Source: Candidatus Methylomirabilota bacterium
Lineage (GTDB): Bacteria > Methylomirabilota > Methylomirabilia > Rokubacteriales > DASRDR01
NCBI GenBank assembly: GCA_036005065.1
Contig: DASYQW010000161.1
Location: 2,898-66,897 of the forward strand
DNA: 64,000 nucleotides
Reading direction: 5' to 3'
Shown here: positions 17,643-47,890 of the stretch, one piece after another
How positions within the stretch are numbered: position 1 is the stretch's first letter
Layout of the letters: every line of letters begins with the position of its first letter
The notes under the pieces: generated by a model
Databases searched by the model: none
What the model was told of the DNA's origin: nothing
The model's input: the letters and a program-made list of their open reading frames with translations, nothing else
Position numbers and translations under genes: made by a program

Positions 17643-18877
17643 CCGGGTCCGCCCCGCCGCGCCGCGACGACGCCGTCGACCATGCCCGCCAGGAGCGCCG
17701 CGGCGCGGGCGGCCCCACCCGTATCGAGGCGGGCCGGGGCGGGAAGGTCCGGCGCGGCGAGCGCGGCCTCCATCGCGGCGGCGAGCCGGGCCGGGCCGAG
17801 CTCCGATTCCGGGACCACCGTGAGCCGCCCGCGGGCGGCGAGGAGTCGAGCCCGGAGCGGTTGCTCGTCACCGCTTCCCTCGAAGGGCACCACGACGGCC
17901 CGGACGCCGCTCTGGAGGACGTCGAGCACGGTGTTGTATCCCGCCTGGCTGATCGAGAGCGCAGCCCCGCGCAGGAGCGCCGGGAAGTCGTCGCGGAAGC
18001 GCTCCACGACGACCCCGGGCCGGCCCGCCTGGGGCGGAAGGGCGGCCGCCTCCGCGGCGAGCTCGGCCTGGACGTCGGCGGGCAGGTAGGGCCCGGTGAT
18101 GAGGCGCCAGGGCAGCGCGGCGGCCGCGGGAGCGAGGGCCCGTGCCGCCAGTGCCGCGCGGAAGAGCGGGCCCGCCACGCGCCCGCCGCCTCCCGACACC
18201 ACGACTTCGCCCCGGGGTGTCGCCTCGCCGGGCGGGGCGGGGTCCGGCACCACGTACCCCGTGTAAACCAGCCGGTCGGCCAGGGCGCCGGCCAGGCCGA
18301 AGGTGCGGTCGAGCGGGATCAGATCGGGACTCCCGTGCACGAGGACGCGGTCCACCCACTGCATGATCACGGCCACGACGCTCAGCTCGTACCACGACGG
18401 GTTCTTCTTGCTCACCACGATGTCGCGCACACTGACCGCCACTCGCGGAGCCGCGTCGCCGCGTCGAGCCCGATCGGCGGCGAGCTGGAGGAGCAGGGGG
18501 CCGAGCTCGAAGGCCAGGGCGTGACGACCGAAGGGGAACAGCTCGAGCAGCACGATCGCGGGATCGTGCCGGACGAGCAGCGCCAGGAGCGCCGCGCGCC
18601 GCTCGGCGAGGTACCGCGCGTCCGGCGGGCGCCCGTCGGGCCGCGCGATGGTGCTGGCCGCCTCGTCGGCGGCGGCGAGGGGCGGAAGCGCGACGGGCTC
18701 GACGCCGCCGAGCTCGAGGCCGGGCACCGGCAGGCCGCCGGTCACGAACAGGACGTGCTCGCCGCGCTTCGCGAGCGCGCGGGCGAGGAGGGCCGCCCGC
18801 TGCACGTGGCCGAGGCCCAGCAAGTGCTGACAGTGGAGAAGGATCGGCGGTCGCGCCACGGCGCCCCGGGCGGTCAC
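17639..18877 (-). CDS. Glycosyltransferase (MGT/GT28-like, GT-B fold)
   Basis: N-terminal CQHLLGLGHVQRAALLARAL motif, shared with the 21948..23228 paralogue (SFGLGHLRRCRAIAHAL). GTG start overlaps the histidine phosphatase stop. Confidence 0.65.
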   Translation of the reverse strand: MTARGAVARPPILLHCQHLLGLGHVQRAALLARALAKRGEHVLFVTGGLPVPGLELGGVEPVALPPLAAADEAASTIARPDGRPPDARYLAERRAALLALLVRHDPAIVLLELFPFGRHALAFELGPLLLQLAADRARRGDAAPRVAVSVRDIVVSKKNPSWYELSVVAVIMQWVDRVLVHGSPDLIPLDRTFGLAGALADRLVYTGYVVPDPAPPGEATPRGEVVVSGGGGRVAGPLFRAALAARALAPAAAALPWRLITGPYLPADVQAELAAEAAALPPQAGRPGVVVERFRDDFPALLRGAALSISQAGYNTVLDVLQSGVRAVVVPFEGSGDEQPLRARLLAARGRLTVVPESELGPARLAAAMEAALAAPDLPAPARLDTGGAARAAALLAGMVDGVVAARRGGPG

Positions 18878-19473
18878 AGCGGCGTGAGCGGCTCGTTGAG
18901 TGTCACGAGCTGAAGGTGGCCATCGCCTCGCCGTCGGATGCGGTGGAGCCGGTCAGGCAGCAGGCGGAGCGGAGCCGGCGGCCTCAGGTCCCAGCCGATC
19001 GCCGCGGCGAGGAGGGCTCGGATGACGCCGCCGTGGGTGACGGCGGCCCACGTCTCGTGGCCGCGGCCGGCCGCGATCTCGTCGAGCCACGCCCGGACGC
19101 GGGCGAGAACCTCCGCCGGCGACTCCCCGCCGGGCGGTCTCGCGTCCCACCCCCCGCCCTCCGTGAGCGCGTCGATCTCGTCGAAGCTTCGCCCGTGCCA
19201 CGCCCCGTAGTGCATCTCGATGAGCCGCGCGTCGCGCACCGGCTGGCTCGCGCCCAGCCGGGCGGCGGTCGCCAGGGCCCGCTGCAGCGGACTCACGGCC
19301 CAGGCGAGCCGGCCGTCCGCATGAAGCCGCGCCAGGTCGGCCGGGAGTCGCCAGCGCGCGACCTGCGCCTCGCCGTCGGCCGACAGCGGCGGGTCCGCGT
19401 GGCCCAGGATGCGCCGCTCGGCCGTCCACGTCGTGGCGGCGTGGCGGATGAGGGCCACGTGCGTCGACCTCAC
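18874..19473 (-). CDS. Histidine phosphatase superfamily protein (phosphoglycerate-mutase-like)
   Basis: RHG catalytic motif in VALIRHAATTW…GHADPPLSADGEAQ. I place the start at a GTG overlapping the upstream glycosyltransferase stop (GTGA). The ORF-track 386-aa form has a low-complexity N-terminal extension that overlaps the glycosyltransferase in another frame. Confidence 0.6.
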   Translation of the reverse strand: MRSTHVALIRHAATTWTAERRILGHADPPLSADGEAQVARWRLPADLARLHADGRLAWAVSPLQRALATAARLGASQPVRDARLIEMHYGAWHGRSFDEIDALTEGGGWDARPPGGESPAEVLARVRAWLDEIAAGRGHETWAAVTHGGVIRALLAAAIGWDLRPPAPLRLLPDRLHRIRRRGDGHLQLVTLNEPLTPL

Positions 19474-20666
19474 GCTGGGGAGCCTGCCGGCACGCGACTC
19501 CCCAGCGAAAGACGGGCGAGGCCGTCCCGGAGCCGCCGGGTCCACGCCTCCATCGTCCGCTCGGCGGCGACGAAGGCGCGAGCGGCGTGCCCCATCTCGC
19601 GGCACCGGGCCGGGTCGTCCAGGAGCTGGGCGATTCCCGCGGCATAGGCGGCGGGTGTCGCGTCGGTCAGGAGGCCGCCGCCTGGCGCCACCATGAAGTC
19701 CGGGCCGGGTCCCCGGCAGGCCACCACGGGCAGCCCGGCGGCCGCCGCCTCCAGGTAGACGAGCCCGAGGGCGTCCCCGATTCCGGGGAAGGCGAAGAGG
19801 TCCGCCCCGAGATAGACAGCCGGCAGCGCCGCGGGCTCGAGCGCGCCGAGGAGGCACACCCGGTCCGCCGGCACGGCGGCCAGGACCGCCTCCACCGCGC
19901 GGCGGGCCGGCCCGTCCCCCACGACGACGAGATGCCACCGGCGGCCGGCACTCTCGCGCGAGAGCTCGGCGAGCGCCGCGGCGAGGAGTCGGTACGAATC
20001 GAGCTTGTCCGCCTCGCGCATCATGGCGACACACAACACGAGCGGGCCCTCCGTGGCAGGGATCCGACGGGCCAGCGCCGCCCGATGCCGCGCCCGGACC
20101 GTCTCACTCGCCGCGAATCGCGCGAGGTCCACGGCCGGGGGCAAGAGCAGCAGCCGCTCGGCCGCGAACCGCGGACCCCGGATCGCCGCCAGCCGCGGCA
20201 CGTCGCGCGGGCTCATGGCGAAGATGAGGTCCGCTCGCCGGACGGCGAGCCGGGCGGCGCTCACCCACGGGCGGAAGGGTGTCCGGCGGCTCGACGTCGA
20301 GAGCGCGGTGTCGACCAGGATGTACGGGAGGGCGAGGGCCGTCGCCACGGGGGGCCCGAGGAGGTCCGGGCACCGGGCGTAGTTCTGGTAGGTCATCCAG
20401 CAGCAGGGCTGCGCCGCGTGCGGCCGCCGCCGGTAGCGACGCACGAGCTGGGCCGCGACGAGGGCGGCCCGCCGCTCCAGCCGCACGGCGTCGGCGGGCT
20501 CGAAGCGGCGCCGCCAGCTCAGGAGCCGGCTCGCCAGCTCGGGCGCGAGGTCGCAGGCGGTGAGGCCCGCCATCAGCGCCCGCGCGATCTCGCGGTCGCC
20601 GGAGGCCTCGCCCTCGAACGGGTGTTTGAGCGGCGCGTAGAAGGCCGCCCGCCGCGCGTTGCTCAC
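19470..20666 (-). CDS. Glycosyltransferase family 4 (GT-B, group 1)
   Basis: C-terminal GT1 domain (…LVVVGDGPARRAVEAV…LLGALEPAALPAVYLGADLFAFPG…EAAAAGLPVVACRG). GTG start (VSNARRAAFYAPLKHPFEGEA) overlaps the upstream stop. The ORF-track 640-aa form includes a spurious N-terminal extension. Confidence 0.7.
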   Translation of the reverse strand: MSNARRAAFYAPLKHPFEGEASGDREIARALMAGLTACDLAPELASRLLSWRRRFEPADAVRLERRAALVAAQLVRRYRRRPHAAQPCCWMTYQNYARCPDLLGPPVATALALPYILVDTALSTSSRRTPFRPWVSAARLAVRRADLIFAMSPRDVPRLAAIRGPRFAAERLLLLPPAVDLARFAASETVRARHRAALARRIPATEGPLVLCVAMMREADKLDSYRLLAAALAELSRESAGRRWHLVVVGDGPARRAVEAVLAAVPADRVCLLGALEPAALPAVYLGADLFAFPGIGDALGLVYLEAAAAGLPVVACRGPGPDFMVAPGGGLLTDATPAAYAAGIAQLLDDPARCREMGHAARAFVAAERTMEAWTRRLRDGLARLSLGSRVPAGSPA

Positions 20667-21979
20667 GGCACCGGGACGCGGGTCGACCGCACCGGGGCGT
20701 CCTCGAGCCAGGGACTCAGGAGCGCGGTGAGGCGCCCGACCCCGGCCTCGAGGTCCCAGCCCTCGGCGACCCGCCGAATGCCGGCCGCACCGAGCCGCCG
20801 GCGCGTGGCCGGATCGGCCGCGAGACGGGCGAGCGCCGAGGCCAGCGCCGCCGGGTCCTCGGGCGGCACCAGGACGCCGTTCAGGCCGTCCTCCACGATT
20901 TCGCCGACGGCCGCCGCGCGGGTGGCCACGACCGGGAGGCCCTGGGAGAGCGCCTCCACCACGACGTTGGGCAACCCGTCTCGGTCGCCGTCCGCCGCGA
21001 CCCGCGGGGCGAGGACGAAGAGATCGCTCGTGCGGTAGAGCGCCCGGACGGCCGGATGGTCGAGCTGACCGAGCCAGCGGACGCGCGCCTCCAGGCCGAG
21101 GGCGCTCGTGAGGGACCGGAGGCTGGACTCGGCCGGCCCGTAGCCGACGAGCGTGAGGACCGCGTGCCCCGGCAGGCGAGCCAGGGCGCGCAGCACCAGG
21201 TCGAAGCCCTTCTTGGGCTGCAGCCGACCCACGGCGAGCAGCCGCACCGGGTCGTTCGCGTCGCGGCCGTCCCGCGGCGAGCCGAAGGTCGCCGGGGGCG
21301 CGAAGAAGGCGCGGTCGAGGCCGTGGTAGACGAGATCGACGCGCGCCTGGGGCATGAGGCGCCGGAGGTACTCCCGGTTCTCCGCGGTGCACGTCACGCA
21401 GAAGCGTGCCCCGGCGAGCTTCGCGCGGAGCTCCCAGGCCGGTCGCGTCCAGATGTCCTTGGCGTGGGCCGAGAGGCTGTAGGTGAGCCCGGCCATGGCC
21501 GCGGCGTACCGCGCCACCGAGGCCGGTGTGTGGAGGAAGTGCACGTGCATGTGGCGGGCCTCCGGCCAGAGCTCGGCGGCGAGGACTCCCGCCTGACCGA
21601 AGCGGCGCCCGCGGTTCGGTGTCGGGTCACGCGCGAGGTCGGAGAGCCAGAGGCGGAGGCTCCGGAGGTACCGCCCGGGGGCCCGTCGAAAGGCCTGCAG
21701 GTGGCCGCGCAGGACCCGCCGCGGGTCCTCGATCAGGTACTCGGGCAGGTAGAGGACCGGAGCCCGCACCTCGGCGTGGACCGGTTGGGTGATCCGGTCA
21801 TAGGGGCGGCGCAGCGAGACGATCGCCAGGGCGAACCCCCGGCGCTCGAGGGCGGCCAGCTCCTGCGCGACGAAGGTCTCGGAAACCCGCGGATAGCCCT
21901 TGACCACGACGACCAGCGGAGGGCGCGGCCCGAGGGCATCCCGTCGCTCAGACGACGGCGCGGCGCCACTCCTGTCCAT
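20663..21979 (-). CDS. Glycosyltransferase family 4 (GT-B, group 1)
   Basis: LVVVVKGYPRVSETFVAQE … GT1 C-terminal domain (EALSQGLPVVATRAAAVGEIVEDGLNGVLVPPEDPAALASAL). The annotated start overlaps the upstream gene by 32 bp, so the true start may be further downstream. Confidence 0.7.
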   Translation of the reverse strand: MDRSGAAPSSERRDALGPRPPLVVVVKGYPRVSETFVAQELAALERRGFALAIVSLRRPYDRITQPVHAEVRAPVLYLPEYLIEDPRRVLRGHLQAFRRAPGRYLRSLRLWLSDLARDPTPNRGRRFGQAGVLAAELWPEARHMHVHFLHTPASVARYAAAMAGLTYSLSAHAKDIWTRPAWELRAKLAGARFCVTCTAENREYLRRLMPQARVDLVYHGLDRAFFAPPATFGSPRDGRDANDPVRLLAVGRLQPKKGFDLVLRALARLPGHAVLTLVGYGPAESSLRSLTSALGLEARVRWLGQLDHPAVRALYRTSDLFVLAPRVAADGDRDGLPNVVVEALSQGLPVVATRAAAVGEIVEDGLNGVLVPPEDPAALASALARLAADPATRRRLGAAGIRRVAEGWDLEAGVGRLTALLSPWLEDAPVRSTRVPVP

Positions 21980-23228
21980 TCATCCGCCAGCGAGCGACCG
22001 TGGCATTGATCTGCTTGAGCCCGTTCAGCAAGCCGGGGATGCGGTGGCTGGCCGGGAGCGGCTGCTCCGGCAGATGGACGAGGGCCTCGGCGAGCGACTC
22101 GGGTGTGAGCCGATCGGGGTGGAGCATCTGGACGAGCCCGAGCTCGCGCGCCGCCTCGGCGCGGAGCAGCTGCTCGGCGCGAGGCGTGACACGGGGAACG
22201 ATCAGGGTCCGCTTGTTCAGCGAGAGCACCTCGCAGAACGTGTTGTAGCCGCCCAGGCAGACCACGGCGGCCGCCTTCTCCATCAGGTTCTCGAGGTGCT
22301 CGTGGAAGGTGAGGGTCATCACCCCGGGGAGCCGCGCAGCCCGCCGCTCGAAGGCGGCTCGCTGGCGGGTCGGCAGGAACGGGCCGTAGACGACCAGCGC
22401 CCGCCAGGGCAGTCGCCCGTCGAAGCGCTCGTAGGCGGCCAGGGTCGTGTCCACGAGGTCGGCGCCGTCCCCGCCGCCTCCCGGCGTGACGAGCACGAAG
22501 GGTCCCTTGTCGAGGGCCGCCGCCACGTCGGGGGGCAGGTACGCCTCGGGCTGGGGCTCGCGCTGGAGGTACCCCGTGAAGACGGTCTTGGCCGCCACGT
22601 CCGCCGGAAGCCCGTAGGCGCTGACTGGATCGTAGATCTGAGGGAGGCCATAGACCCAGATGTGGTCGTAGAGACGTTTGAGGGCGGGCATGACGCGCTT
22701 GCGCCGCCACTCCCGGGCCAGGAGGTCCGGGTCGTCCATGATGTCGCGGAGCCCCAGCACGAGGCGACAGCCGCCCCGCCGCTTGAGCAGCCGAAGGGTC
22801 TTGGCGACCTCGCCCAGGAGGCCCAGCGGCTCCTTGTCCACCAGGAAGAGGTGCGGGTCGAAGACCTGGGCGGTGTGCTCGATGATCGAGCCCCGGAGGG
22901 CGAGGGTGTGCTCGATGTCGACGTCCAGGCTCAAGCTCGTGTATTCCCCGTTTCGAAGCTTGATGATGCCTGGAACCCGGACGAAGTCCACCCGTGCCCG
23001 GAAGCTGAAGCGCCCGATGATCGGCGAGCCGCTGAGGATGAGGACGTTGAGCTTCTTGTGATGGCCCACCAGGGCGTGCGCGATGGCCCGGCAGCGCCGC
23101 AGGTGGCCGAGTCCGAAGGAGTCGTGGCTATAAATGAGGACGCGGTAGCTGGACCCCCGCGCGGCCGGCTCCGGCCGATGGCGGCCCCCATCCTCCGGCG
23201 CTCCGGCATTCGAGCGTGATGGCATCAC
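21948..23228 (-). CDS. Glycosyltransferase (MGT/GT28-like), first gene of the glycoconjugate cluster
   Basis: YSHDSFGLGHLRRCRAIAHAL N-terminal motif and a GT-B C-terminal half (VVCLGGYNTFCEVLS). Confidence 0.7.
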   Translation of the reverse strand: MMPSRSNAGAPEDGGRHRPEPAARGSSYRVLIYSHDSFGLGHLRRCRAIAHALVGHHKKLNVLILSGSPIIGRFSFRARVDFVRVPGIIKLRNGEYTSLSLDVDIEHTLALRGSIIEHTAQVFDPHLFLVDKEPLGLLGEVAKTLRLLKRRGGCRLVLGLRDIMDDPDLLAREWRRKRVMPALKRLYDHIWVYGLPQIYDPVSAYGLPADVAAKTVFTGYLQREPQPEAYLPPDVAAALDKGPFVLVTPGGGGDGADLVDTTLAAYERFDGRLPWRALVVYGPFLPTRQRAAFERRAARLPGVMTLTFHEHLENLMEKAAAVVCLGGYNTFCEVLSLNKRTLIVPRVTPRAEQLLRAEAARELGLVQMLHPDRLTPESLAEALVHLPEQPLPASHRIPGLLNGLKQINATVARWRMNGQEWRRAVV

Positions 23229-23587: not shown

Positions 23588-24601
23588 ATGGCTGAGCCTC
23601 TCCTCCGGGTCGAGGATCTGCGGACTTACATCTACCTGGATGAAGGGGTGGTCCGGGCCGTCAACGGGGTCTCCTTCACCTTGGACCGTGGTCAGACCAT
23701 GGCCATCGTGGGAGAGTCGGGCTCCGGCAAGACCGTGGTCGCCCAGTCGATCCTGCGCATCCTCCCCGACCGGGCCCGGATCGAGGGGGGGCGGGTCCTC
23801 TTTTCGGCGGACGGGAGCCCCCCGCTGGACCTGGTCGGGCTTCCCGCCAACGGGAAGGCGATGCGGGAGATCCGGGGGGGGTCCATCGCCATGGTCTTCC
23901 AGGAGCCCATGACGTCCTTCTCCCCGGTCCACACGATCGGCAACCAGATCGGGGAGGCGGTGCGCCTCCACCGGGGGGCCAGCCGGGCCGAGGCGCGGGC
24001 GGTCGCCATCGAGACGCTCCGAGCCGTGGGGTTTCCGGAGCCCGAGCGGAAGGTCGACAGCTACCCCTTCGAGCTCTCCGGGGGGCTGCGCCAGCGGGCC
24101 ATGATCGCCATGGCCCTGGCCTGCCGGCCGGCCCTGCTGATCGCCGACGAGCCGACCTCCGCGCTCGACGTCACGATCCAGGCCCAGATCCTGGACCTCT
24201 TGCTGGCGCTGCAGAAGGAGTCGGGGATGGGCCTCCTGCTCATCACCCATGACCCCGGCGTGGTGGCCTACGTCGCCGATCTCGTCACCGTGATGTACTG
24301 TGGCAAGATCATGGAGACGGGTCCCGTCAGCACCCTGTTCGACAATCCCCGGCACCCGTACCTCCAGGCCCTGCTCCGGAGCACGCCTCACTTCGGGATC
24401 CCCGAGGGGGAACGGCTCGAGGCGATCGCCGGGACCGTGCCCGACCCACTCTCGATGATCCGGGGCTGCCCGTTCCTCTCGCGGTGTCCCGAAGGGGAAC
24501 CGGAGCTGTGTGGGCGGACGATGCCGGCGCTCACGCCCCTGGCGCCGGACCATCACGTGGCCTGCTACAAGCGGGGGTCGCCGCCGGAGGCGGAAGCGTG
24601 A
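23588..24601 (+). CDS. Oligo/dipeptide ABC transporter ATP-binding protein (OppD/DppD-like)
   Basis: Walker [17 protein letters not shown] signature, and a C-terminal oligopeptide-transporter extension with Cys residues ([15 protein letters not shown]). Confidence 0.85.
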
Positions 24602-24650
24602 GGGGGCTCGGGCCGCGGCCCGTCGCCTCTCGGCGTCCGCAGGTGTCCCG

Positions 24651-25760
24651 GTGACCCGGAACGGCGGCGGGCGCGCGACGGTCGAGGCGGGGCAGACCCC
24701 CGCGCGCCCTTCTTCGCCCGGGCCGCTCCTGACCGTGCATGATCTCACCAAGCACTTTGCCCTCTACCAGCCCTGGCTGCTGGGCCTCGCCCGCCGGCGG
24801 GTCGGGACGGTCAAGGCGGTGGAAGAGGTGAGTTTCGCGCTCCAGCGCGGGGAGACCCTGGGGCTGGTGGGTGAGTCCGGCTGCGGGAAGACCACGACCG
24901 CCCGGCTCATCCTGCGCGCGATCCGGCCCACCCGGGGCGAGATCCTCTTCAATCTCGACGGCAACGTGGTGCGGGTAGACCAGCTCGAGGGCAAGGCGCT
25001 GCGGGCCTTGCGCCGGCACATCCAGCTGATCTTTCAGGACCCCTTCTCCTCGCTCAATCCGCGCATGCCGGCCGGGGAGATCATCGCCGAGCCGTTGAAG
25101 CTCCATCAGGCCGGGTCCCCGGCCCAGATCACCGAGCGGGTGAAGGCGCTCATGGCGATGGTCGGGCTCGACGTCCAGTATCTCCGCCGTTACCCGCACT
25201 CCTTCTCGGGCGGCCAGCGCCAGCGGATCGGCATCGCGCGGGCGCTGGCCCTGAACCCCGAGCTGATCGTCTGCGACGAACCGGTGTCCGCCCTCGACGT
25301 GTCGATCCAGGCCCAGGTGCTGAACCTCCTCAAGGATCTCCAGGCCGAGCTCGGCCTGACCTATCTCTTCATCTCGCACAACCTCGCCGTCGTGGACTAT
25401 GTGGCCGATCGCGTCGCCGTGATGTATTCGGGGCGGATCGTCGAGCTGGCCGGCAAGCGCGAGCTCTTCGCGCGCCCCCGGCATCCGTACACCGAGGCTC
25501 TGCTGGCCGCCGTCCTCCAACCCGACCCGAAGCTCCGCCCCGACCACGCGGCCCTGGGGGATGGCCAGGTGATCGAGGCCCCGGTGGAGGGGTGCCCCCT
25601 CGCCCCCCGGTGCCGCTACGCCGTCGAGCGGTGCCAGATCGAGGATCCGCCACTCCGCGAGGTCGAGCCGGATCACTGGGTCCGGTGCCATCGGGTCGAC
25701 GAGATCCGGCTCGCGCCGCTCCTGAGGCGGCCCCGTCTCACGCAGGAGAAATCGGCATGA
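24651..25760 (+). CDS. Oligo/dipeptide ABC transporter ATP-binding protein (OppF/DppF-like)
   Basis: GESGCGKTT, FSGGQRQRIGIARAL, LIVCDEPVSALD, and a C-terminal CPLAPRCRYAVERC. Start uncertain: GTG 24651 (alternative GTG 24735), no ATG available. Confidence 0.8.
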   Translation: MTRNGGGRATVEAGQTPARPSSPGPLLTVHDLTKHFALYQPWLLGLARRRVGTVKAVEEVSFALQRGETLGLVGESGCGKTTTARLILRAIRPTRGEILFNLDGNVVRVDQLEGKALRALRRHIQLIFQDPFSSLNPRMPAGEIIAEPLKLHQAGSPAQITERVKALMAMVGLDVQYLRRYPHSFSGGQRQRIGIARALALNPELIVCDEPVSALDVSIQAQVLNLLKDLQAELGLTYLFISHNLAVVDYVADRVAVMYSGRIVELAGKRELFARPRHPYTEALLAAVLQPDPKLRPDHAALGDGQVIEAPVEGCPLAPRCRYAVERCQIEDPPLREVEPDHWVRCHRVDEIRLAPLLRRPRLTQEKSA

Positions 25761-27661
25761 TCGAGCGAAGGCTGGGGTGGTTCATCGGGCTGGTCGGAGT
25801 CGGGCTGGCCGCGGCCGCCGCGGCCGCCCCCGGGAGCGCCCCTCCCGAGCCGCCCTCCCTGGCGGCCCGCGCGGCATCGGGCGAGCTCCCGCCGCTCGCC
25901 CGGCGGCTGCCGGAGCATCCGATGGTGGTGACGACGGCGGCGGAAGCCGCCTATGGCGGCGAGCTGCGGACGCTCATCGGGACGCCCAAGGACCTGAAGC
26001 TCGCCTTCGTCTACGGCTACGCCCGCCTGGTCCGGTTCAATCACCGCTATCAGATCGTTCCCGACATCGCCGAGCGGGTCGACGTGGCGGAGGGGCGCAC
26101 GTTCACGTTCCACCTGCGCAAGGGGCACCGCTGGTCGGACGGGACGCCGTTCACCAGCGCCGATTTCCAGTACTGGTGGGAGCACGTCGCCAACAACAAG
26201 GAGCTGTCCCCCGGGGGGCCGCCGGCGCTTCTCCTGGTGGATGGGGAGTTGCCGCGCGTGGAGTTCCCGGACGCGCAGACCGTGCGGTTCAGCTGGTCCA
26301 AGCCCAACAACCTCTTCCTGCTGGACCAGGCCGGCGCGGCGCCGACGATCCTCTATCGGCCGGCCCACTACCTCAAGCGGTTCCACAAGGCCTTCGCCGA
26401 CGCCGAGAAGCTGGCCGCGCAGGCCAAGCAGGAGCGGCGGCGGAGCTGGGCCGGGCTCCACAACGCGCGCGACGCCCTCTACGTGATGGACAATCCCGAG
26501 CTGCCGACCCTCCAGCCGTGGAAGCCCACGGTGGCGCCGCCCGCCGAGGTGTTCCACGCCGAGCGCAACCCCTACTTCCACCGGGTCGACCAGCGCGGGC
26601 GGCAGCTCCCGTACATCGACCGCCTCAAGATGATCCTGGCCGACAAGGCGGTCATCCCGGTCAAGGCGTCCACGGGGGAAACCGACCTTCAGGCGCGCTA
26701 CCTGACGTTCGACCAGTACACGTTTCTCAAGCGGAACGAGCAGCAGGCTGGCTATCGGGTGTACCTCTGGTCGACGGCCGCCAGCGCCGCCGTCGCCCTC
26801 TACCCGAACCTCACGACCGGCGACCCCGTGATGCGGAAGCTGCTCCAGGACCGGCGCTTCCGTCAGGCGCTGTCCCTGGGCATCGATCGGGAGGAGATCA
26901 ACAAGATCCTCTACTACGGCTTCGGCACCATCGGCCAGAACACCGTCCTCCGGAGCCCGGCCTCCCACGAGGACACTCGCATGGCCTACGCCCGGTTCGA
27001 TCCCGCCCAGGCCAACCGGCTCCTCGACGAGCTGGGGCTCAAGGGGCGCGACGCGAAGGGTTTCCGGCTGCGCCCCGACGGCCAGCGCCTGGACGTCATC
27101 GTGGAGACCGCGGGCGAGTCCACCGAGCAGACCGACGTGCTGGAGCTGGTGGCGGACACCTGGGCCCAGCTCGGCGTCGAGCTCCTGATCCGGCCGACTC
27201 AACGGGAGATTTTCCGGCGCCGGGTCTTCTCCGGCGAGGCGATGATGAGCATCAGCAACAGCGACCTGTTCGGGCTCCCCACGCCCGACATGAGCCCGAG
27301 CTGGCTGGCGCCCGTGGCCGAGGAGCAGCTCCAGTGGAGCCGCTGGGGCGTGTATTTCGAGACGAAGGGCAAGCGCGGGGAGGCTCCCGAGCTGCCGTCG
27401 GCCCGCCGGCTGGTCGAGCTGTACCGGCGGTGGCTCGTCTCGACCGAGCGCGCCGAGCGGGAGCGGGTCTGGGGCGAGATGCTCGACATCAACGCGGAAG
27501 AGGTGTTCACGATCGGGATCCTGGGGGGCACCCTCCAGCCGGTCGTCGTGGCCAACGGCCTCCGCGGCGTGCCGGAGAAGGGCATCTACGCCTGGGACCC
27601 CGGCGCCCACTTCGGGATCCACAGCCCGGACACGTTCTACTGGCAGGGGGGCCGTCCGTGA
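25757..27661 (+). CDS. ABC transporter substrate-binding protein, family 5 (peptide/nickel type), 634 aa
   Basis: Signal peptide, then an SBP_bac_5-like sequence. ATG overlaps the preceding stop (ATGA) and has an AGGAGAA RBS. Confidence 0.85.
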   Translation: MIERRLGWFIGLVGVGLAAAAAAAPGSAPPEPPSLAARAASGELPPLARRLPEHPMVVTTAAEAAYGGELRTLIGTPKDLKLAFVYGYARLVRFNHRYQIVPDIAERVDVAEGRTFTFHLRKGHRWSDGTPFTSADFQYWWEHVANNKELSPGGPPALLLVDGELPRVEFPDAQTVRFSWSKPNNLFLLDQAGAAPTILYRPAHYLKRFHKAFADAEKLAAQAKQERRRSWAGLHNARDALYVMDNPELPTLQPWKPTVAPPAEVFHAERNPYFHRVDQRGRQLPYIDRLKMILADKAVIPVKASTGETDLQARYLTFDQYTFLKRNEQQAGYRVYLWSTAASAAVALYPNLTTGDPVMRKLLQDRRFRQALSLGIDREEINKILYYGFGTIGQNTVLRSPASHEDTRMAYARFDPAQANRLLDELGLKGRDAKGFRLRPDGQRLDVIVETAGESTEQTDVLELVADTWAQLGVELLIRPTQREIFRRRVFSGEAMMSISNSDLFGLPTPDMSPSWLAPVAEEQLQWSRWGVYFETKGKRGEAPELPSARRLVELYRRWLVSTERAERERVWGEMLDINAEEVFTIGILGGTLQPVVVANGLRGVPEKGIYAWDPGAHFGIHSPDTFYWQGGRP

Positions 27662-27688
27662 CCACGCCGGTCCCGGGGTAGGCCGGCC

Positions 27689-28687
27689 ATGCTCCGCTAT
27701 CTCGTTCAGCGAGTGCTCCTGATGATTCCGACGCTCCTGGCCATCTCCATCCTCACCTTCGTGATCATCCAGCTTCCCCCGGGGAACTACCTGGACACGC
27801 TCATCAGCGAGCTGCGGTCGGCCGGCGAGACGGCGGACCTTCAGAAGATGGAGTTCCTCCGGAAGCAGTACGGCCTCGATCAGCCGGTCTGGATGCAGTA
27901 CTGGATCTGGCTCCGGGGCCTCTTCCACGGCGACCTGGGCTATTCGTTCGAGTACGACCGGCCGGTCACGGCGATCATCGGGGAGCGCCTGGCCCTCACC
28001 TTCGTCGTCTCGTTCGGGGCCATCTTATTCACCTGGCTGGTCGCGTTCCCCATCGGCGTCTACTCGGCGACGCACCAGTACAGCTGGGGGGACCACGGCC
28101 TGACCTTCCTGGGCTTCCTGGGGCTGGCCACCCCCAACTTCCTACTAGCCCTCGTGCTGATGTTCGTCTCGTTCACCTGGTTCGGGGTGAGCGTGGGAGG
28201 TCTCTTCTCGCCCGACCTCCAGGAAGCCCCCTGGGGCTGGGCCAAGATCGTCGACCTGCTCGAGCACCTGTGGATCCCCGTGGTGGTGATCGGCACCGCC
28301 GGCACCGCCGGGATGATCCGTCGCCTCCGGGCCAACCTCCTCGACGAGCTCAAGAAGCAGTACGTCGTGACCGCGCGGGCCAAGGGGCTTCCGCCCGGGC
28401 GGCTGCTCGTCAAGTACCCGCTGCGCATCGCCCTGAATCCCTTCATCAGCGACATCGGCAACCTGCTGCCGGAGGTGGTCTCGGGGTCGGTCATCGTCTC
28501 GATCGTGCTGTCGCTGCCCACGACCGGCCCCATGCTGCTGCGCGCGCTCCGAACCCAGGACATGTACCTGGCCGGCTCCTTCCTCATGCTGCTGGCCTCC
28601 CTCACCGTGCTGGGGGTCTTCCTGTCGGACCTGGCGCTGGCCGCGCTGGATCCGCGGATTCGCCAGGGCGCCGAGCGCAGCCGATGA
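27689..28687 (+). CDS. Peptide ABC transporter permease (OppB/DppB-like)
   Basis: Six-TM BPD_transp_1 permease; MLRYLVQRVLLMIPTLLAISILTFVIIQL is a typical OppB N-terminus. Confidence 0.85.
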   Translation: MLRYLVQRVLLMIPTLLAISILTFVIIQLPPGNYLDTLISELRSAGETADLQKMEFLRKQYGLDQPVWMQYWIWLRGLFHGDLGYSFEYDRPVTAIIGERLALTFVVSFGAILFTWLVAFPIGVYSATHQYSWGDHGLTFLGFLGLATPNFLLALVLMFVSFTWFGVSVGGLFSPDLQEAPWGWAKIVDLLEHLWIPVVVIGTAGTAGMIRRLRANLLDELKKQYVVTARAKGLPPGRLLVKYPLRIALNPFISDIGNLLPEVVSGSVIVSIVLSLPTTGPMLLRALRTQDMYLAGSFLMLLASLTVLGVFLSDLALAALDPRIRQGAERSR

Positions 28688-29823
28688 GCGTGCCGGTGGT
28701 GATCGCGGCGCCCGCCCCGGACGTGCGGACGCTGACCCCCGAGCAAGAGCGCTACTACCTCGCTTCCCAGTGGCAGCTCATCTGGTGGCGCCTCCAGAAG
28801 CATCGGCTGGCCATGGCGGCGCTCTGGTTCCTGGTGGCGTTCTACGCCATCATCCCGTTCGTCGAGTTCCTGGCGCCCTACGCGCTGCGGACGCGGCATG
28901 CGGACTACGTGTACTTCCCGCCCCAGCGGGTGCACGTCTTCCACGACGGGCGGCTGGTCGGGCCGTTCGTGTATGGCCACGTCATGACCATCAACATGGA
29001 GACCCTCAAACGGGAGTACCGTGAGGACTTCACCCGGCGCTACCGGGTCCGGCTCCTCGCCGAGGGCGAGCCCTACGCCTTCCTGGGTCTGTGGCAGGCC
29101 CGCGTGCATCTCTTCGGGTCGGAGGAGGGCGGGACGCTGTTCCTGCTCGGGACCGATCGGCTCGGGCGCGACATGCTCTCGCGAATCCTCCACGGCGCCC
29201 GGATCTCGCTCACGGTGGGACTGGTGGGGATCTCGGTGAGCTTCGTCCTGGCGCTGATCTTCGGCGGACTGTCGGGATACTACGGCGGCAAGGTGGACAT
29301 CGTCATCCAGCGCCTGATCGAGGTGATCCGATCGTTCCCCGAGCTTCCGCTCTGGATGGCGCTCTCCGCCGCGCTGCCGGCCCGCCTGGAGCCGATCCTC
29401 GTCTACGTGGGCATCACGATCATCCTGGGCATCATCGACTGGACCGGGCTCGCCCGGAGCATCCGCGGCAAGCTTCTCTCCCTGCGGGAGGAGGACTTCG
29501 CCACCGCGGCGCTTCTGATGGGGGGCTCGCCGGCCTACGTGATCCGCCGGCATCTGCTGCCGGCCTTCACCAGCCATCTCATCGTCTCCGCCACGCTGAG
29601 CATCCCTCGGATGATCCTGGGGGAGACCGCCCTGAGCTTCCTGGGCCTCGGCCTGCGGTCGCCGATCACGAGCTGGGGCGTGCTTCTCACCGAGGCTCAG
29701 AACATGAACGCCGTCGCCCTCTATCCCTGGCTGATGGCGCCGGTCGTGGCCGTCGTCCTGACGGTGCTCGCCTTCAACTTCCTGGGCGACGGCCTCCGCG
29801 ACGCCGCCGATCCGTACGCGTGA
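28684..29823 (+). CDS. Peptide ABC transporter permease (OppC/DppC-like)
   Basis: ATG 28684 overlaps the OppB stop. OppC-like TM core (…GTDRLGRDMLSRILHGARISL…). Confidence 0.85.
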   Translation: MSVPVVIAAPAPDVRTLTPEQERYYLASQWQLIWWRLQKHRLAMAALWFLVAFYAIIPFVEFLAPYALRTRHADYVYFPPQRVHVFHDGRLVGPFVYGHVMTINMETLKREYREDFTRRYRVRLLAEGEPYAFLGLWQARVHLFGSEEGGTLFLLGTDRLGRDMLSRILHGARISLTVGLVGISVSFVLALIFGGLSGYYGGKVDIVIQRLIEVIRSFPELPLWMALSAALPARLEPILVYVGITIILGIIDWTGLARSIRGKLLSLREEDFATAALLMGGSPAYVIRRHLLPAFTSHLIVSATLSIPRMILGETALSFLGLGLRSPITSWGVLLTEAQNMNAVALYPWLMAPVVAVVLTVLAFNFLGDGLRDAADPYA

Positions 29824-29901
29824 TGGGAATCTGGCGGCGCTGCCGACGATATCCCGAGTCGACGAAGAGGGGACCCTCCCCTCCGGCTGGAGCGTAACCG
29901 G

Positions 29902-32460
29902 ATGGAAACCAATCTCTATCGCTACATCATCCGACGGAGCCTCAGGCACCAGCTCATCCTGATCGCCATCATCTTCGTGCTGGCGTTCCTGAACCCCTGG
30001 ATGTTGTCCCTGACGAAACAGATCATCAACAAGGCCATCGGGAAGGGCGACCTGGGCGCGCTGGTGTGGCTGTGCACGCTGTTCCTGGGGGCCGTGCTGG
30101 CCTCGGGGGCGCTCAAGTACGTCAAGCAGAACATGGAGGGGCTGATCTCGGAGCGGATGCTGCGGAACCTGCGGAGCGAGCTGTACGAGCGGATCCTGCG
30201 CTTCCCGCTGCCGCATTTCCGGAACACCTCGACGGGACAGCTGGTGGCCATGATCCTGGGCGAGGTGGAGGACCTCGGCAACTTCTTCGGTGAAGCCCTC
30301 TCGATCCCCGCGTTTCAGGGCTCCATGCTGATCGGCACGCTGGCGTTCATGGTGTATCAGAACCCCTGGATGGCCCTGGCCGGCATGGCGCTGTTCCCCG
30401 TCCAGGTCTGGCTGGTTCGGAAGCTCCAGCGCCGCGTCACCCAGCTCTCGCGCGAGCGGGTCCGGCTGGTGCGGGGGCTCTCCGACAAGATCCAGGAGTC
30501 GGTCGGGAGCATCCAGGAGATCTACGTCCACAACACGCTGGCCTACGAAGCCACCGGTTTCCGGGGCCAGCTCCGGCGGATCTTCAAGGTGCGGCTCCGG
30601 ATCTACAACCTCAAGTACCTGGTCAAGTGGATCAACAACTTCCTGGAGAAGTTCGGGCAGTTTGTCCTCCTCCTCCTCGGGGGGTGGCTGATCATCACGC
30701 GACCGGACCTCTTCGACGTCGGCAGCCTGGTGGCCTTCCTGCAGGCCTACAACCAGCTGAACGAGCCGTGGCGGGAGCTCATCAACTACTTCCAGCAGAA
30801 GGAGAACGCGCGCGTCAAGTACGAGCAGGTCATCCTCAACTTCGACGTGCCGGGCATCCGGCCGGAGTTCCCGCTGGAGGAGCGCCTCCCGGAGCCGGTG
30901 CCGAAGCTGGCCGGCGCCTACGACGTCCGCGGCGCCACCGTGCTGCTGGACGGCTCAGTCAAGGCCCTCGACCAGATCAAGCTGGCCACGCCGCCCCACG
31001 AGCACGTGGCCATCGTGGGGACGGCCGGCAGCGGGAAGTCGACCCTGGCCCTGGTGCTGGCCAAGCTCTACGGCTACACGGGCACCGTCTTGCTCGACAA
31101 CGTTGAGCTGGCCCAGATCCCCTCGGCGGTGGCCGGTCGCCAGATGGCCTACGTGGGCAGCGAGGCCCGGCTGTTCACCGGCACCGTGCTCGACAACGTG
31201 GTGTATGGCCTCCGTCACCGGCCGGGTACCGGCGACGCCCGGCCGGACTCGGACGACTGGCTCGATCTCTCTCCGCTGGGGGTGTCGGATCGGGCGGGGC
31301 TGGTGGCCGCCGTCCTCGAGTCGGCCCGGGTGGGGAGGTTGGACGACGACCTCTTCGCGCTCGGTCTCCGGTCGACCATCGATCCGGCGAAGCAGCCGGA
31401 GATCGCCGCCCGGCTCCTCACCGCCCGCCGGCTGGTGGCGGAGCGCTTCGCCCGCGAGGGGGGCGAGCCGGCCATCGAGTTCTTCGACCGGGAGCGCTTC
31501 GCGACCTACGCGTCCATCGGCGAGAACATCCTGTTCGGGCACAGCGCGGTCCCGGCCCTCGCGCTGGAGCGACTGCCCGCCAGCGAATACTTCCTGCGGG
31601 TCATTACCGAGGTCGAGCTGCGAGCGCCACTGCTGACGCTGGGCGCCGAGATCGCCAGGGAGACGGTCGAGATCTTCAAGGACATCGCGCCCGACAACGA
31701 GCTGTTCGCCAACTTCAGCTTGATCACCGCCAGCGAGCTCCCGGAGTACACCCGGCTGGTCTCGCGCCTGGACGGAGGCCCGCCGGACGGGTTGCCCGCC
31801 GAAGATCAGGAACGACTGATCGCGCTTTCCCTTCGGCTCATCCCGGCTCGCCACCGACTGGGCCGCGTCGACGAGGCGTTCATGGCCAAGATCGTCCTGG
31901 CCCGGCGGCGCTTCGCCGAGACCTTGCCGCCCATGCTGGCCGAGACCTTCGCGCCCTACGACCGCGAGCGGTATTTCGCGGACGGCACCCTGCTGGAGAA
32001 CATGCTGTTCGGAAAGGTCGTGGCCACCAGCAGCCTGGCCGTCAAGCGCGTCAACGCCATCGTCGAGGAGGTGATCACCGCTCATGGCCTGCGCGACGTC
32101 GTGATGGAAGCGGGACTGGGCTATCACGTCGGGCTCTTCGGCAGCCGGCTGTCCCCCGCCCAGCGCCAGAAGGTGGCGCTGACGCGGGCCCTGCTCAAGC
32201 GGCCGCACATCCTCATCATGGACCAGGCGGTGAGCGTCCTGGAGGGGGACAAGCGCGGCGAGGTCCACCAGCGGGTCACGGCCGCCATGAAGGGGCGAAC
32301 GATCATCGCCGTCGTCGACCGGCTGGACCTGGCCCGGTACTACGATCGGGTGGCGGTGCTCGACGCGGGCAAGGTCGCGGAGTTCGGGACCTACCAGGAA
32401 CTCGTGACGCAGGGAAGCCTGTTCCGTCAACTCGCGGTCCAGGCCGGGGTCACGGCCTGA
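29902..32460 (+). CDS. Atypical ABC exporter-like half-transporter (TMD plus degenerate NBD with ~290-aa insertion), 852 aa
   Basis: The N-terminal ~330 aa is a 6-TM ABC exporter domain. Walker A (VGTAGSGKST) is intact. The Q-loop Gln is replaced (YVGSEA). There is a ~290-aa insertion between the Q-loop and signature motifs containing repeated (L)F.G(T)(V/L)L(D/E)N…FG segments. The signature LSGGQ is replaced by LSPAQ, Walker B hhhhDE by ILIMDQ, and the H-loop His by Asp (VDRL). Confidence 0.75.
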   Translation: METNLYRYIIRRSLRHQLILIAIIFVLAFLNPWMLSLTKQIINKAIGKGDLGALVWLCTLFLGAVLASGALKYVKQNMEGLISERMLRNLRSELYERILRFPLPHFRNTSTGQLVAMILGEVEDLGNFFGEALSIPAFQGSMLIGTLAFMVYQNPWMALAGMALFPVQVWLVRKLQRRVTQLSRERVRLVRGLSDKIQESVGSIQEIYVHNTLAYEATGFRGQLRRIFKVRLRIYNLKYLVKWINNFLEKFGQFVLLLLGGWLIITRPDLFDVGSLVAFLQAYNQLNEPWRELINYFQQKENARVKYEQVILNFDVPGIRPEFPLEERLPEPVPKLAGAYDVRGATVLLDGSVKALDQIKLATPPHEHVAIVGTAGSGKSTLALVLAKLYGYTGTVLLDNVELAQIPSAVAGRQMAYVGSEARLFTGTVLDNVVYGLRHRPGTGDARPDSDDWLDLSPLGVSDRAGLVAAVLESARVGRLDDDLFALGLRSTIDPAKQPEIAARLLTARRLVAERFAREGGEPAIEFFDRERFATYASIGENILFGHSAVPALALERLPASEYFLRVITEVELRAPLLTLGAEIARETVEIFKDIAPDNELFANFSLITASELPEYTRLVSRLDGGPPDGLPAEDQERLIALSLRLIPARHRLGRVDEAFMAKIVLARRRFAETLPPMLAETFAPYDRERYFADGTLLENMLFGKVVATSSLAVKRVNAIVEEVITAHGLRDVVMEAGLGYHVGLFGSRLSPAQRQKVALTRALLKRPHILIMDQAVSVLEGDKRGEVHQRVTAAMKGRTIIAVVDRLDLARYYDRVAVLDAGKVAEFGTYQELVTQGSLFRQLAVQAGVTA

Positions 32461-32472
32461 GGGACGACAGCG

Positions 32473-32925
32473 ATGCAGCCGCTAGAACGAGACGTCGAGA
32501 CCCTGCGCAACATCCCCCTGTTCGCCGGCCTGCCGACGGCGCGGCTCAAGCTCATCGCCTACACGGCCGAAGTCGTACGCTTCGAGCCCGGCGAGGTGAT
32601 CGTGCAGCAAGGCGACGCGGCCGATGCCGTGTACATCATCGCCGAGGGCGAGGCCGAGGTGTGGCTCACCGACGCCGACAGCCACCGCCTGCTCCTGCGG
32701 ACCATGGGGCCCCACAGCCTGTTCGGGGAGACGGCCGTGCTGTGCAAGCGGCGACGGACGGCCACCGTGAAGGCCAAGGATCGCGTGGTGACATTCAAGA
32801 TCTCGGCCCAGCTGTTCCTCGACCTCGTGCGCCAGAGCCCGGAGATCGGGATGCAGGTGATGACGGTGCTGGCCGAGCGCCTGGAGAGCAGCACCGCCCT
32901 CTTGCAGCAGCACGACCGCCACTGA
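32473..32925 (+). CDS. Standalone cyclic-nucleotide-binding (cNMP/CAP effector) domain protein, 150 aa, no DNA-binding domain
   Basis: LRNIPLFAGLP…FEPGEVIVQQGD…FGETAVL…RRTATVKA. Its start lies 13 nt after the ABC gene stop. Confidence 0.8.
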   Translation: MQPLERDVETLRNIPLFAGLPTARLKLIAYTAEVVRFEPGEVIVQQGDAADAVYIIAEGEAEVWLTDADSHRLLLRTMGPHSLFGETAVLCKRRRTATVKAKDRVVTFKISAQLFLDLVRQSPEIGMQVMTVLAERLESSTALLQQHDRH

Positions 32926-33010
32926 GTGAGTTTCGGAGGGGGTGTCGGAACACCCCCTCCGAGGCCTCCCCCAAGAATCGTGGCGGCGGCAAAGCCGCCG
33001 CTCGGAGCGG
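32923..33010 (+). repeat. Double-hairpin intergenic repeat, subfamily 2, copy C (begins at the TGA stop of the cNMP-binding gene)
   Basis: TGAGTGAGTTTCGGAGGGGGTGTCGGAACACCCCCTCCGAGGCCTCCCCCAAGAATCGTGGCGGCGGCAAAGCCGCCGCTCGGAGCGGGACATCC. Perfect 12-bp stem CGGAGGGGGTGT/ACACCCCCTCCG plus a GGCGGCGGC-AAA-GCCGCCGC stem. Confidence 0.55.
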
Positions 33011-33150: not shown

Positions 33151-33606
33151 CTACGGCCGCTCGACGATATCGGTCTTCAGGGTCCCGAGGAGCGCCAGCA
33201 CCTCGCCCTTTTCCTTCTCCGGCACCTTGAACTTCTCGAGGGTCGCCACCAGGTGGTTCACCGCGATGGTCCAGTCCCGCTCCGAGATCCCCGACCCGGC
33301 GTGGGAGGCTTTCATGGTGCGCCCGGTGTAGATGCAGGGCCCGCCCGTCGCCGCGCAGAGCTGGTCGACCACGTGCTGGCGGATCCGGGTCTTGGAGTCC
33401 GTGCTGAACACCTCGAAAAAGCGGCGGAGCTGGGGGTCGCCGACGAGGCGCCCGATGAACTCGTCCACCACGGCGGCGATCGCGTCGTATCCGCCCAGCC
33501 GCTTGTAGAGAGTGTCGGCGGACTGGGCCGACACGCTCGGCGCCAGGGAGGCCACCGTCAACAGAGCGACGAGGGTGAAGCCGATGCAGAGAGCACGGAT
33601 CCGCAT
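33151..33606 (-). CDS. Truncated haemoglobin (group I 2/2 Hb) with an N-terminal Sec signal peptide
   Basis: trHbN hallmark LYKRLGGYDAIAAVVDEFIGRLVGDPQLRRFF and the proximal-His region MKASHAGSGISERDW. Signal peptide MRIRALCIGFTLVALLTVASLAPSVSA. Confidence 0.75.
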   Translation of the reverse strand: MRIRALCIGFTLVALLTVASLAPSVSAQSADTLYKRLGGYDAIAAVVDEFIGRLVGDPQLRRFFEVFSTDSKTRIRQHVVDQLCAATGGPCIYTGRTMKASHAGSGISERDWTIAVNHLVATLEKFKVPEKEKGEVLALLGTLKTDIVERP

Positions 33607-36952: not shown

Positions 36953-37432
36953 ATGGGATCCCGACAATGGGCGATGGAACACCGGAAGCGGATCGCCCTG
37001 GTGGCGCACGACAACAAGAAGCATGATCTGCTGGAATGGGCGGCCTTCAACCGAGAGCTCCTGGCTCGACACGAGCTGTACGCGACCGCCACCACCGGGA
37101 CCCTCCTCCGGCAAGAGCTCGAACTCGAAGTCATCTCGCTGCAGAGCGGACCGCTCGGCGGTGACCAGCAGATCGGCGGGAAGATCGCGGAGGGCGCGGT
37201 CGACTTCTTGATCTTCTTCTGGGATCCTCTCAAACCACAGCCCCACGATCCCGATGTGAAGGCTCTCCTGCGGATCGCGGTGGTATGGAACATTCCCGTC
37301 GCGTGCAACCGAGCGTCGGCGGATTTCATGATCTCGTCGCCGCTGATGTCGGCGGGCTACCAGCGTCTTCTTCCCGACTACGGGGATCCGCATAAAGCGG
37401 TCGCCGATCCGAGTTCCTCCGGCTCTCGCTAG
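36953..37432 (+). CDS. mgsA: Methylglyoxal synthase
   Basis: [17 protein letters not shown]…[11 protein letters not shown]…[11 protein letters not shown]…LIFFWDPL…[24 protein letters not shown] before the ATG. Confidence 0.85.
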
Positions 37433-37641
37433 AAGCCTGTCGGGTGGAGCGCGGGCAGCGTGATGCCCAAACGCTGGCGTATGGGGGCCCACTCAGAGCG
37501 CGGGCTTTGCCCGCGGGCCCACCCACGGAAGCCCGAGAGGTGGGGGGAGGTTCGAGAGGGGGCCGTCGAGGCCCCCTCACTGCAAGAATTGCGGCGCGGC
37601 CCCGGACGCCGAACTGGTCCACCCGCTCGGCCGGAGGGCTG

Positions 37642-47486: not shown

Positions 47487-47890
<404 letters not shown>

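Follow-up and report, generated by a model that had tools for sequence, protein, structure and literature searches.

An ABC exporter variant paired with a cyclic-nucleotide-binding protein in a candidate glycoconjugate cluster of Rokubacteria and rhizobia

Half-transporters of the MsbA/ABCB type, which belong to the ATP-binding cassette (ABC) proteins, carry a membrane domain of six transmembrane helices (6-TM; ABC_membrane) followed by a nucleotide-binding domain (NBD) on a single chain, and the glycan or lipid exporters PglK and NdvA/ChvA lie in a glycosyltransferase neighbourhood. Both traits are shared by ABCx, the product of a gene in a 64,000-nucleotide stretch of DNA from a Candidatus Methylomirabilota bacterium of the order Rokubacteriales (GenBank contig DASYQW010000161.1, positions 2,898 to 66,897; hereafter the window), where it stands between the genes of an Opp-type importer and a gene for a small protein predicted to bind cyclic nucleotides (cNMP). 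Unlike MsbA/ABCB proteins, ABCx has an NBD split by ~280 residues, has lost the catalytic residues, carries the signature LSPAQ and comes with a cNMP-binding partner; in fact, it scores 252 bits against the MsbA equivalog model TIGR02203, for which the cut-off is 602. It is best filed as an ABC exporter variant with a cyclic-nucleotide receptor, in an uncharacterised glycoconjugate cluster.

Several described systems resemble parts of this arrangement. CFTR (ABCC7) serves as a working analogy because its conduit is built on the ABC exporter fold, a site in it is degenerate and the cAMP pathway controls it. It differs, however, in that it retains one active ATP site and is regulated by phosphorylation of its R domain by protein kinase A (PKA), not by direct cNMP binding, whereas the presumed ABCx homodimer would have both sites non-canonical; the two have no homology beyond shared domains. 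A second working analogy is provided by MloK1, CNG and HCN, membrane proteins gated by a C-terminal cNMP-binding domain. The c-di-GMP systems BcsA-PilZ, Alg44 and PelD offer a functional analogy, since a second-messenger receptor sits on a machine for glycan export or synthesis and the cyclase gene is sometimes part of the same cluster; in contrast to these, the window would combine a cAMP/cGMP messenger, a CAP-type receptor and a machine of ABC exporter fold, all three being proposed here. Finally, the export of NHLP/Nif11 bacteriocins likewise associates an exporter-type ABC protein with a cNMP-binding domain protein. In those systems the cNMP-binding domain is placed N-terminally, whereas here it is C-terminal or separate, and the neighbourhood also differs, being made up of glycosyltransferases and an importer; precursor-peptide or peptidase genes were not found. 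We rejected membership in the bacteriocin cNMP/ABC families on weak scores that fall far under the cut-offs (172 vs 709 bits for TIGR03797, 35 vs 161 bits for TIGR03896).

The transmembrane domain (TMD) of ABCx occupies residues ~1-310 and has the type IV exporter fold, with PF00664 matching residues 19-289. Foldseek and phmmer searches against the Protein Data Bank (PDB) match the first ~445 and the last ~125 residues to MsbA/ABCB-type exporters (MsbA, TM287/288 and TmrAB), and they return no solved counterpart for residues ~445-725; nor does any Pfam or NCBIfam model cover this insert. The AlphaFold2 model of the whole protein (mean pLDDT 80.7) confidently predicts the insert to be all-helical. 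Modelled alone, the insert reaches a pLDDT of 66, and Foldseek finds nothing in the PDB at E < 0.5.

Rather than foreign sequence, the ~280-residue insert consists of two extra copies of the Q-loop/helical-subdomain module. Profiles of three consecutive segments (Table 1), built from 70 diverse family members, match one another in hhalign (repeat 1 vs repeat 3: Prob 96.8, E 2.6e-10, 83 columns; repeat 1 vs repeat 2: Prob 94.1, E 1.3e-7; repeat 2 vs repeat 3: Prob 98.4, E 8.6e-15), and control comparisons with other parts of ABCx give Prob 2.5 or less. Because the segments match mutually, the NBD carries three tandem Q-loop/helical-subdomain modules. Each of them contains the motif (E/D)N-x-L-(F/Y)-G, and only the third ends in the signature motif. 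The Asn of this motif is present in 70/70 family members for copy 2 and in 68/70 for copy 3, the final Gly in 69/70 and 70/70. The gene had been called atypical in the initial annotation, which missed that the atypical part is a triplicated helical subdomain. We found such a triplication neither in the literature nor among solved structures.

That annotation had also described the protein as exporter-like and degenerate, and its motifs bear this out: Walker A (GTAGSGKST) is preserved, as is the Walker B Asp, the Q-loop reads YVGSE, the signature LSPAQ and Walker B ILIMD-Q, so that the catalytic Glu, the H-loop His and the Q-loop Gln are all absent and there is no contiguous canonical NBD. The same picture holds in 66 close homologues, which retain Walker A GTAGSGKST, the Walker B Asp and the signature LSPAQ, lack the H-loop His and the Q-loop Gln, and vary in the residue after the Walker B Asp (Q/R/D/E/T/G/M). 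Having kept Walker A and the Walker B Asp, the rokubacterial protein is probably still able to bind ATP, which it would hydrolyse slowly or not at all. Across 70 representatives of the wider family the losses go further, with the Walker A Lys kept in 25/70, the Walker B Asp in 20/70, the catalytic Glu in 21/70 and the H-loop His in 5/70; conservation within the family is highest in TM5-TM6 of the full exporter-fold TMD. One homologue, at locus L028 (ENA ERZ21862645 ctg13955l, 246-4925), combines the triplicated helical subdomain with fully canonical motifs (GKST, Q-loop Gln, LSGGQ, DE and His) and is followed by a cNMP-binding gene and then a cyclase-domain open reading frame (ORF). Because L028 keeps these ATPase motifs, the family descends from a working transporter and has lost hydrolysis repeatedly, the hydrolytic residues being gone in most lineages.

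As had been proposed, the gene directly after ABCx encodes a cNMP-binding domain of the CAP type with no DNA-binding domain attached. The CRP model matches residues 28-141 only, and Pfam gives no helix-turn-helix (HTH) match before the chain ends at residue 150; in other words, the protein has the N-terminal cNMP-binding domain of CRP/FNR regulators and lacks their C-terminal HTH. Its phosphate-binding cassette is intact (FGE...RRTAT, in the motif FGETAVLCKRRRTATVKA), and across homologues the cassette Arg is conserved in 91/91, the Gly in 86/91 and the Glu in 85/91.

The evidence that ties this protein to ABCx comes from other genomes. Searching with the ABCx insert alone among 1.84 billion cluster representatives (E <= 1e-3) we recovered 696 representatives related to it. 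In 18 of the 69 full-length ones, a cNMP_binding domain is fused to the C-terminus of the ABCx homologue (1026-1206 aa), and some of these fusions add a GGDEF domain. Where the two are unfused, a cNMP-binding gene directly follows ABCx in 17/17 Rokubacteria loci and in 66/76 metagenome loci. Because they are fused in other phyla and adjacent otherwise, ABCx and the 150-residue protein are taken to act together: as two separate polypeptides they make up a member of a widespread and uncharacterised protein family, and the fusion/fission pattern is strong evidence for the prediction that the 150-residue protein truly binds a cyclic nucleotide. The GGDEF-bearing proteins, of ~1180 aa and with the order TMD, triplicated NBD, cNMP_binding, GGDEF (L025 10001-13549; P0220 and P0322-P0383), join cNMP to c-di-GMP signalling on an ABC scaffold. 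At another locus (L104 5960-7567) a cyclase-domain ORF overlaps the cNMP-binding match directly 3' of ABCx, possibly as a cNMP-binding/cyclase fusion.

In the window, ABCx and the cNMP gene close an operon of seven co-directional genes that runs oppD, oppF, SBP (for the substrate-binding protein), oppB, oppC, ABCx and the cNMP gene. Its junctions are ATGA overlaps (oppF stop/SBP start and oppB/oppC) or gaps of 12-78 bp, with 12 bp between ABCx and the cNMP gene. This is the operon that the initial annotation had drawn, with small corrections to its coordinates: the most plausible start of oppF is the GTG at 24651, which leaves a 49-bp gap after oppD in place of an ATGA overlap. Since GC3 (the GC content of third codon positions) is 0.88-0.93 in a genome of ~70% GC, oppD, oppF, oppB, ABCx and the cNMP gene look typical of real genes in the GC3/GC2 screen; SBP and oppC are not listed separately there, their frames extending upstream into long non-coding stretches. 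A promoter/terminator pair between oppC and the downstream genes, which would have split the operon, was sought and not found: a pattern scan detects no promoter- or terminator-like site in the oppC-ABCx spacer, which folds no better than shuffled sequence (RNA fold z = -0.36). An 11-bp perfect, GC-rich hairpin read from the sequence 3' of the cNMP gene probably marks the end of the operon; it lacks a T-run, on which the terminator scan depends, and was therefore not flagged. The upstream neighbour of the operon is divergent and the downstream globin gene convergent. An Rfam scan of the whole window gave only an RNase P RNA and two tRNAs, and hence no riboswitch or leader in the operon.

Table 1. 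Coordinates of the ABCx locus and of other features in the window (position 1 is the first nucleotide of the window)
Feature	Position	Strand	Remarks
Transketolase-like E1 beta and E2 (2-oxoacid dehydrogenase acyltransferase) genes	12006-14654	+	just 5' of the cyclase
FHA-GAF class III nucleotidyl cyclase	14719-16275	+	Pfam FHA, GAF, Guanylate_cyc
Divergent operon	16318-23228	-	seven genes, part of the same conserved cluster; Pfam and NCBIfam
265-aa protein (h265)	16318-17115	-	
Methyltransf_17	17112-17642	-	
GT28-like	17639-18877	-	
Histidine phosphatase	18874-19500	-	
GT4	19470-20690	-	
GT4	20663-21979	-	
GT28-like	21948-23228	-	
oppD	23588-24601	+	337 aa, ATPase of ABC importer; Pfam ABC_tran 1e-24, oligo_HPY 3e-17
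oppF	24651-25760	+	ATPase of ABC importer; Pfam ABC_tran 9e-31, oligo_HPY 7e-16
SBP	25757-27661	+	family-5 (cluster C), 634 aa, signal peptide; Pfam SBP_bac_5 4e-54
oppB	27689-28687	+	permease; Pfam BPD_transp_1 and BPD_transp_1_N
oppC	28684-29823	+	permease; Pfam BPD_transp_1 and OppC_N
oppC-ABCx spacer	29824-29901	+	78 bp
ABCx	29902-32460	+	852 aa; Pfam ABC_membrane 2e-33, ABC_tran split in two separated pieces
ABCx repeat 1	31135-31467	+	residues 412-522; Q-loop strand, GTVLDNVVYG, helical-subdomain copy 1 with signature-helix relic
ABCx repeat 2	31468-31941	+	residues 523-680; SIGENILFG, helical-subdomain copy 2, extra helical extension
ABCx repeat 3	31942-32271	+	residues 681-790; GTLLENMLFG, genuine helical subdomain, signature LSPAQRQ, Walker B ILIMD-Q
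cNMP-binding protein	32473-32925	+	150 aa; PF00027 1.5e-22, residues 35-121
Hairpin	32934-32961	+	3' of the cNMP gene
Truncated haemoglobin (Bac_globin)	33151-33606	-	convergent to the operon
DisA-type diadenylate cyclase (DAC) domain protein	37396-38793	+	465 aa
RNase P RNA class A	47493-47891	-	287 bits
tRNA	48672-48744	-	
tRNA	57695-57766	-	

The seven genes are not the whole unit; they are half of a conserved ~14-gene cluster which, to judge by its gene content, makes and traffics a glycoconjugate. The other half, whose link to the seven genes the initial annotation missed, is the divergent operon of Table 1, which places four glycosyltransferases (GT), a histidine phosphatase and a methyltransferase beside the Opp genes and the ABCx-cNMP pair. 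NCBIfam and PDB searches with the glycosyltransferases, the phosphatase, the methyltransferase and the 265-aa protein returned generic matches only and no specific pathway. The synteny of the seven-gene operon is conserved in relatives, in fact in 18/18 related Rokubacteria/Methylomirabilota species genomes, with gaps of 10-28 bp between oppC and ABCx and of 1-19 bp between ABCx and the cNMP gene. Within Rokubacteria the SBP gene has moved: oppF and oppB flank it in the window and at three other loci (L004, L006 and L017), it is convergent and downstream of the cNMP gene in 13 Rokubacteria loci, and it was not found in the available flanks of two more (L002 and L003). We judged synteny within Rokubacteria insufficient as proof of linkage, since the divergent upstream glycosyltransferase genes are equally conserved there. 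Their conservation becomes a signal because the same set recurs in distant loci whose ABCx is 34-41% identical.

In the distant arrangement the order is oppC<oppB<SBP<oppF<oppD<h265<GT28b<HisP<GT4b<GT4a<GT28a, divergent from ABCx>cNMP>MT17, and every one of these genes has an orthologue in the window. Opp genes are present in 15 of the 20 loci that have 10 kb of upstream sequence, and of the five loci without them, three have no cNMP-binding gene either. Rearranged, the cluster recurs in Rokubacteria, in marine and soil Alphaproteobacteria, on Rhizobium plasmids and on S. meliloti pSymB; on replicons of cultured bacteria it is found in 144 Rhizobium and 80 Sinorhizobium records, and in Ensifer, Mesorhizobium, Phyllobacterium and others. 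Across phyla the Opp proteins are 50-72% identical and ABCx 31-41%. In R. leguminosarum the cluster reads, on one strand, cyclase, fused OppDF, SBP, permease, permease, GT, GT, GT, ABCx and cNMP-binding protein, and S. meliloti pSymB (about 828.5-846 kb in 1021/2011) has the same set, except that a polysaccharide lyase follows the cyclase-domain gene and an FkbM methyltransferase comes last. The lyase belongs to PF14099 (locus L112, S. meliloti 2011 pSymB 825727-860435; gene at 4090-5070), and a nucleotide-sugar dehydrogenase adjoins the R. leguminosarum cluster (locus L111, 2798-4135). These two enzymes hint that the product of the rhizobial cluster may contain uronic acid. The literature yielded no description of the ABCx family, of the triplicated NBD or of the cluster.

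By domain content, OppDF-SBP-BC is a predicted bona fide importer of the PepT/Opp-Dpp family (TC 3.A.1.5): both ATPases carry PF00005 and PF08352, and they are accompanied by an SBP_bac_5 protein and two BPD_transp_1 permeases of the OppB and OppC types. The four cysteines in the C-terminal oligo_HPY region of OppD (24480-24590, CPFLSRC...C...C) recur in OppF (25640-25740, CPLAPRC...C...C), and these ends may be counterparts of the C-termini that have been reported to bind Fe-S in some Opp ATPases. The window importer shares with GsiABCD and other PepT/Opp importers its two oligo_HPY ATPases, SBP_bac_5 protein, two permeases and gene order. The gene order that begins with the ATPases and has the SBP in the middle, which had been called unusual, is in fact also that of E. 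coli gsiABCD (ATPase, SBP, permease, permease) and is ancestral for this type of cluster, across which oppB is 61-72% identical to its orthologues in distant clusters. Unlike GsiABCD, the window importer sits in a glycosyltransferase cluster and falls below all NCBIfam equivalog cut-offs (the OppD/DppD-type matches of oppD included), so that its ligand is not assignable from them.

The word 'peptide' in the earlier description of this importer is thus a family label only. Among solved structures the SBP is closest to 5ipw (2e-96), which comes from Thermotoga maritima and has no known ligand; SPH1118 (6e-79), which binds pectin, and an alpha-galactoside binder (3e-26) come next. Its closest characterised relatives are thus carbohydrate-binding family-5 proteins of the SPH1118 and AgpA type. 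SPH1118, earlier annotated as oligopeptide-binding, binds pectin and hardly binds peptides (PMC9314435). Its substrate residues Arg57 and Arg438 (PMC9314435) are not kept in the window SBP, which has Phe and Gly there, and since these arginines bind carboxylate we dropped the idea that the protein binds pectin or uronate. Given the context we consider a glycoside at least as likely a ligand as a peptide, and 'oligopeptide transporter' labels on this SBP subfamily are not to be trusted. The hints of an acidic glycan behind the pectin or uronate idea had come from three sides, namely the similarity to SPH1118, the polysaccharide lyase of the S. meliloti cluster and the nucleotide-sugar dehydrogenase adjoining that of R. 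leguminosarum.

To bring these elements together we tentatively propose, at slightly less than an even chance, that ABCx is a cNMP-controlled gate of exporter fold for the glycoconjugate made by the cluster, which the importer would serve to recapture. A class III cyclase encoded nearby, in the window the FHA-GAF enzyme, would supply cNMP to the 150-residue protein, which, once loaded, would dock on the NBD of ABCx with the two extra helical subdomains as its likely platform. Docking would govern closure of the NBD dimer and thereby open or close the pathway through the TMD. Because ATP would be hydrolysed slowly or not at all, it would be cNMP rather than ATP turnover that sets the state of ABCx. 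The gated pathway would release or flip the product of the adjacent glycosyltransferases, and the Opp-type importer would take this glycan or its fragments back up. That the best matches of ABCx are MsbA and ABCB lipid/glycan exporters speaks for such a role.

The FHA-GAF cyclase is real and a plausible source of the ligand, as the initial annotation had suggested: its gene converges on the glycosyltransferase operon, 42 bp from its end, and cyclase-domain ORFs recur beside the ABCx-cNMP pair in 13 other loci, often directly after the cNMP-binding gene, while a cyclase gene heads both rhizobial clusters. Just 5' of it, the E1 beta and E2 genes appear unrelated to the cluster. Further along the window lies the protein with a DisA-type DAC domain, which we count as the third nucleotide-messenger enzyme of the window, besides the FHA-GAF cyclase. 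The truncated haemoglobin that converges on the ABCx operon has an apparent N-terminal signal peptide (MRIRALCIGFTLVALLTVASLAPSVSAQ), and its gene is kept only in the closest relative (L003).

Several observations weigh against the proposed gate. The cyclase is present in a minority of loci, so that its association is recurrent and not universal, and some unfused homologues have no cNMP-binding neighbour (L027, L029 and L094-L108). On the side of the glycoconjugate, the cluster lacks a priming phosphoglycosyltransferase, a polymerase and an outer-membrane component, and three proteobacterial homologues of the fused type have neither glycosyltransferases nor Opp genes around them, which means that export of a glycosyltransferase product is not the function of the whole family. 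The relatives fused to GGDEF suggest a signalling role rather than transport. As to the mechanism, it is not obvious how a homodimer would reset when both of its sites are dead, and docking on the extra subdomains is speculation because the insert-only model was poor and matched nothing. We hold it rather unlikely that the proposal is true in its boldest form, namely that these proteins are a new functional class of ABC proteins in which cAMP or cGMP bound to a CAP-type domain, not hydrolysis, drives an exporter-fold pathway, with the extra helical subdomains docking the cNMP domain, and that they form a circuit of cyclase, cNMP, gate and importer for the release and recapture of a glycoconjugate from Rokubacteria to rhizobia, S. 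meliloti pSymB included.

Two other explanations are live. In the first, which we judge unlikely, ABCx and the cNMP-binding protein transport nothing and instead act as a regulatory subunit through which cNMP turns the Opp-type importer on or off. The idea is close to what had been suggested from the window alone, namely a cNMP-responsive importer module; its cNMP half has been strengthened by the fusions, and its importer half weakened by the many homologues that lack Opp genes. Q-loop/helical subdomains are the kind of surface on which ABC permeases dock their coupling helices, and two extra copies could, if the same applies here, serve a regulator of OppB and OppC well. The loss of the hydrolytic residues, the co-transcription with the importer in Rokubacteria and in rhizobia, and the stronger conservation of the Opp proteins than of ABCx across phyla would all fit. 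In most lineages, however, ABCx shares an operon of its own with the cNMP gene and the methyltransferase gene, and this operon diverges from the genes for the glycosyltransferases and the importer; fused homologues, too, occur with no Opp genes nearby. The importer, moreover, has two ATPases of its own, and a mere regulator would not need TM5-TM6, the very part of ABCx that is best conserved.

In the second, which we judge equally unlikely, ABCx is a membrane sensor or transducer ('transceptor') whose TMD senses a membrane or periplasmic ligand and whose cNMP-binding domain integrates the cNMP signal, the output going to partner enzymes: GGDEF in the fused forms, the glycosyltransferases or the methyltransferase in the cluster forms. 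The GGDEF-bearing fusions are common, stand-alone genes are found in varied contexts and often near two-component systems, and family-wide degeneration of the catalytic residues goes together with strict conservation of other motifs. The cluster forms, however, have no output domain, a member with a canonical ATPase exists (L028), and traffic of a substrate accounts better than pure signalling for the close linkage to glycosyltransferases and an importer.

That a peptide importer and a multidrug or lipid exporter, both of a generic kind, merely adjoin each other and a small protein that binds cNMP in inherited synteny is very improbable, for although the database names are generic and synteny shared with the flanking glycosyltransferases proves little within the clade, this view is contradicted by the rearranged but conserved clusters of different phyla with ABCx only 31-41% identical, by the domain fusions that tie ABCx to the cNMP-binding domain, and by an NBD architecture that matches no solved exporter.

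To our knowledge, nearly every direct effector of cAMP or cGMP in bacteria is a transcription factor of the CRP type. If the proposed cNMP control of ABCx is true, a membrane effector of ABC fold would stand beside these as a second class and give cAMP/cGMP a post-translational output. The search for such an output has been a long one in organisms that possess dozens of cyclases, of which rhizobia are one group and Rokubacteria apparently another; in S. meliloti, Clr is described as the known receptor (PMC10127613). The triplicated NBD, for its part, may show how ABC domains are repurposed after the loss of hydrolysis. And since both S. meliloti and R. leguminosarum, which are genetically tractable, carry the cluster, the function of a gene set from an uncultured soil phylum becomes experimentally accessible.

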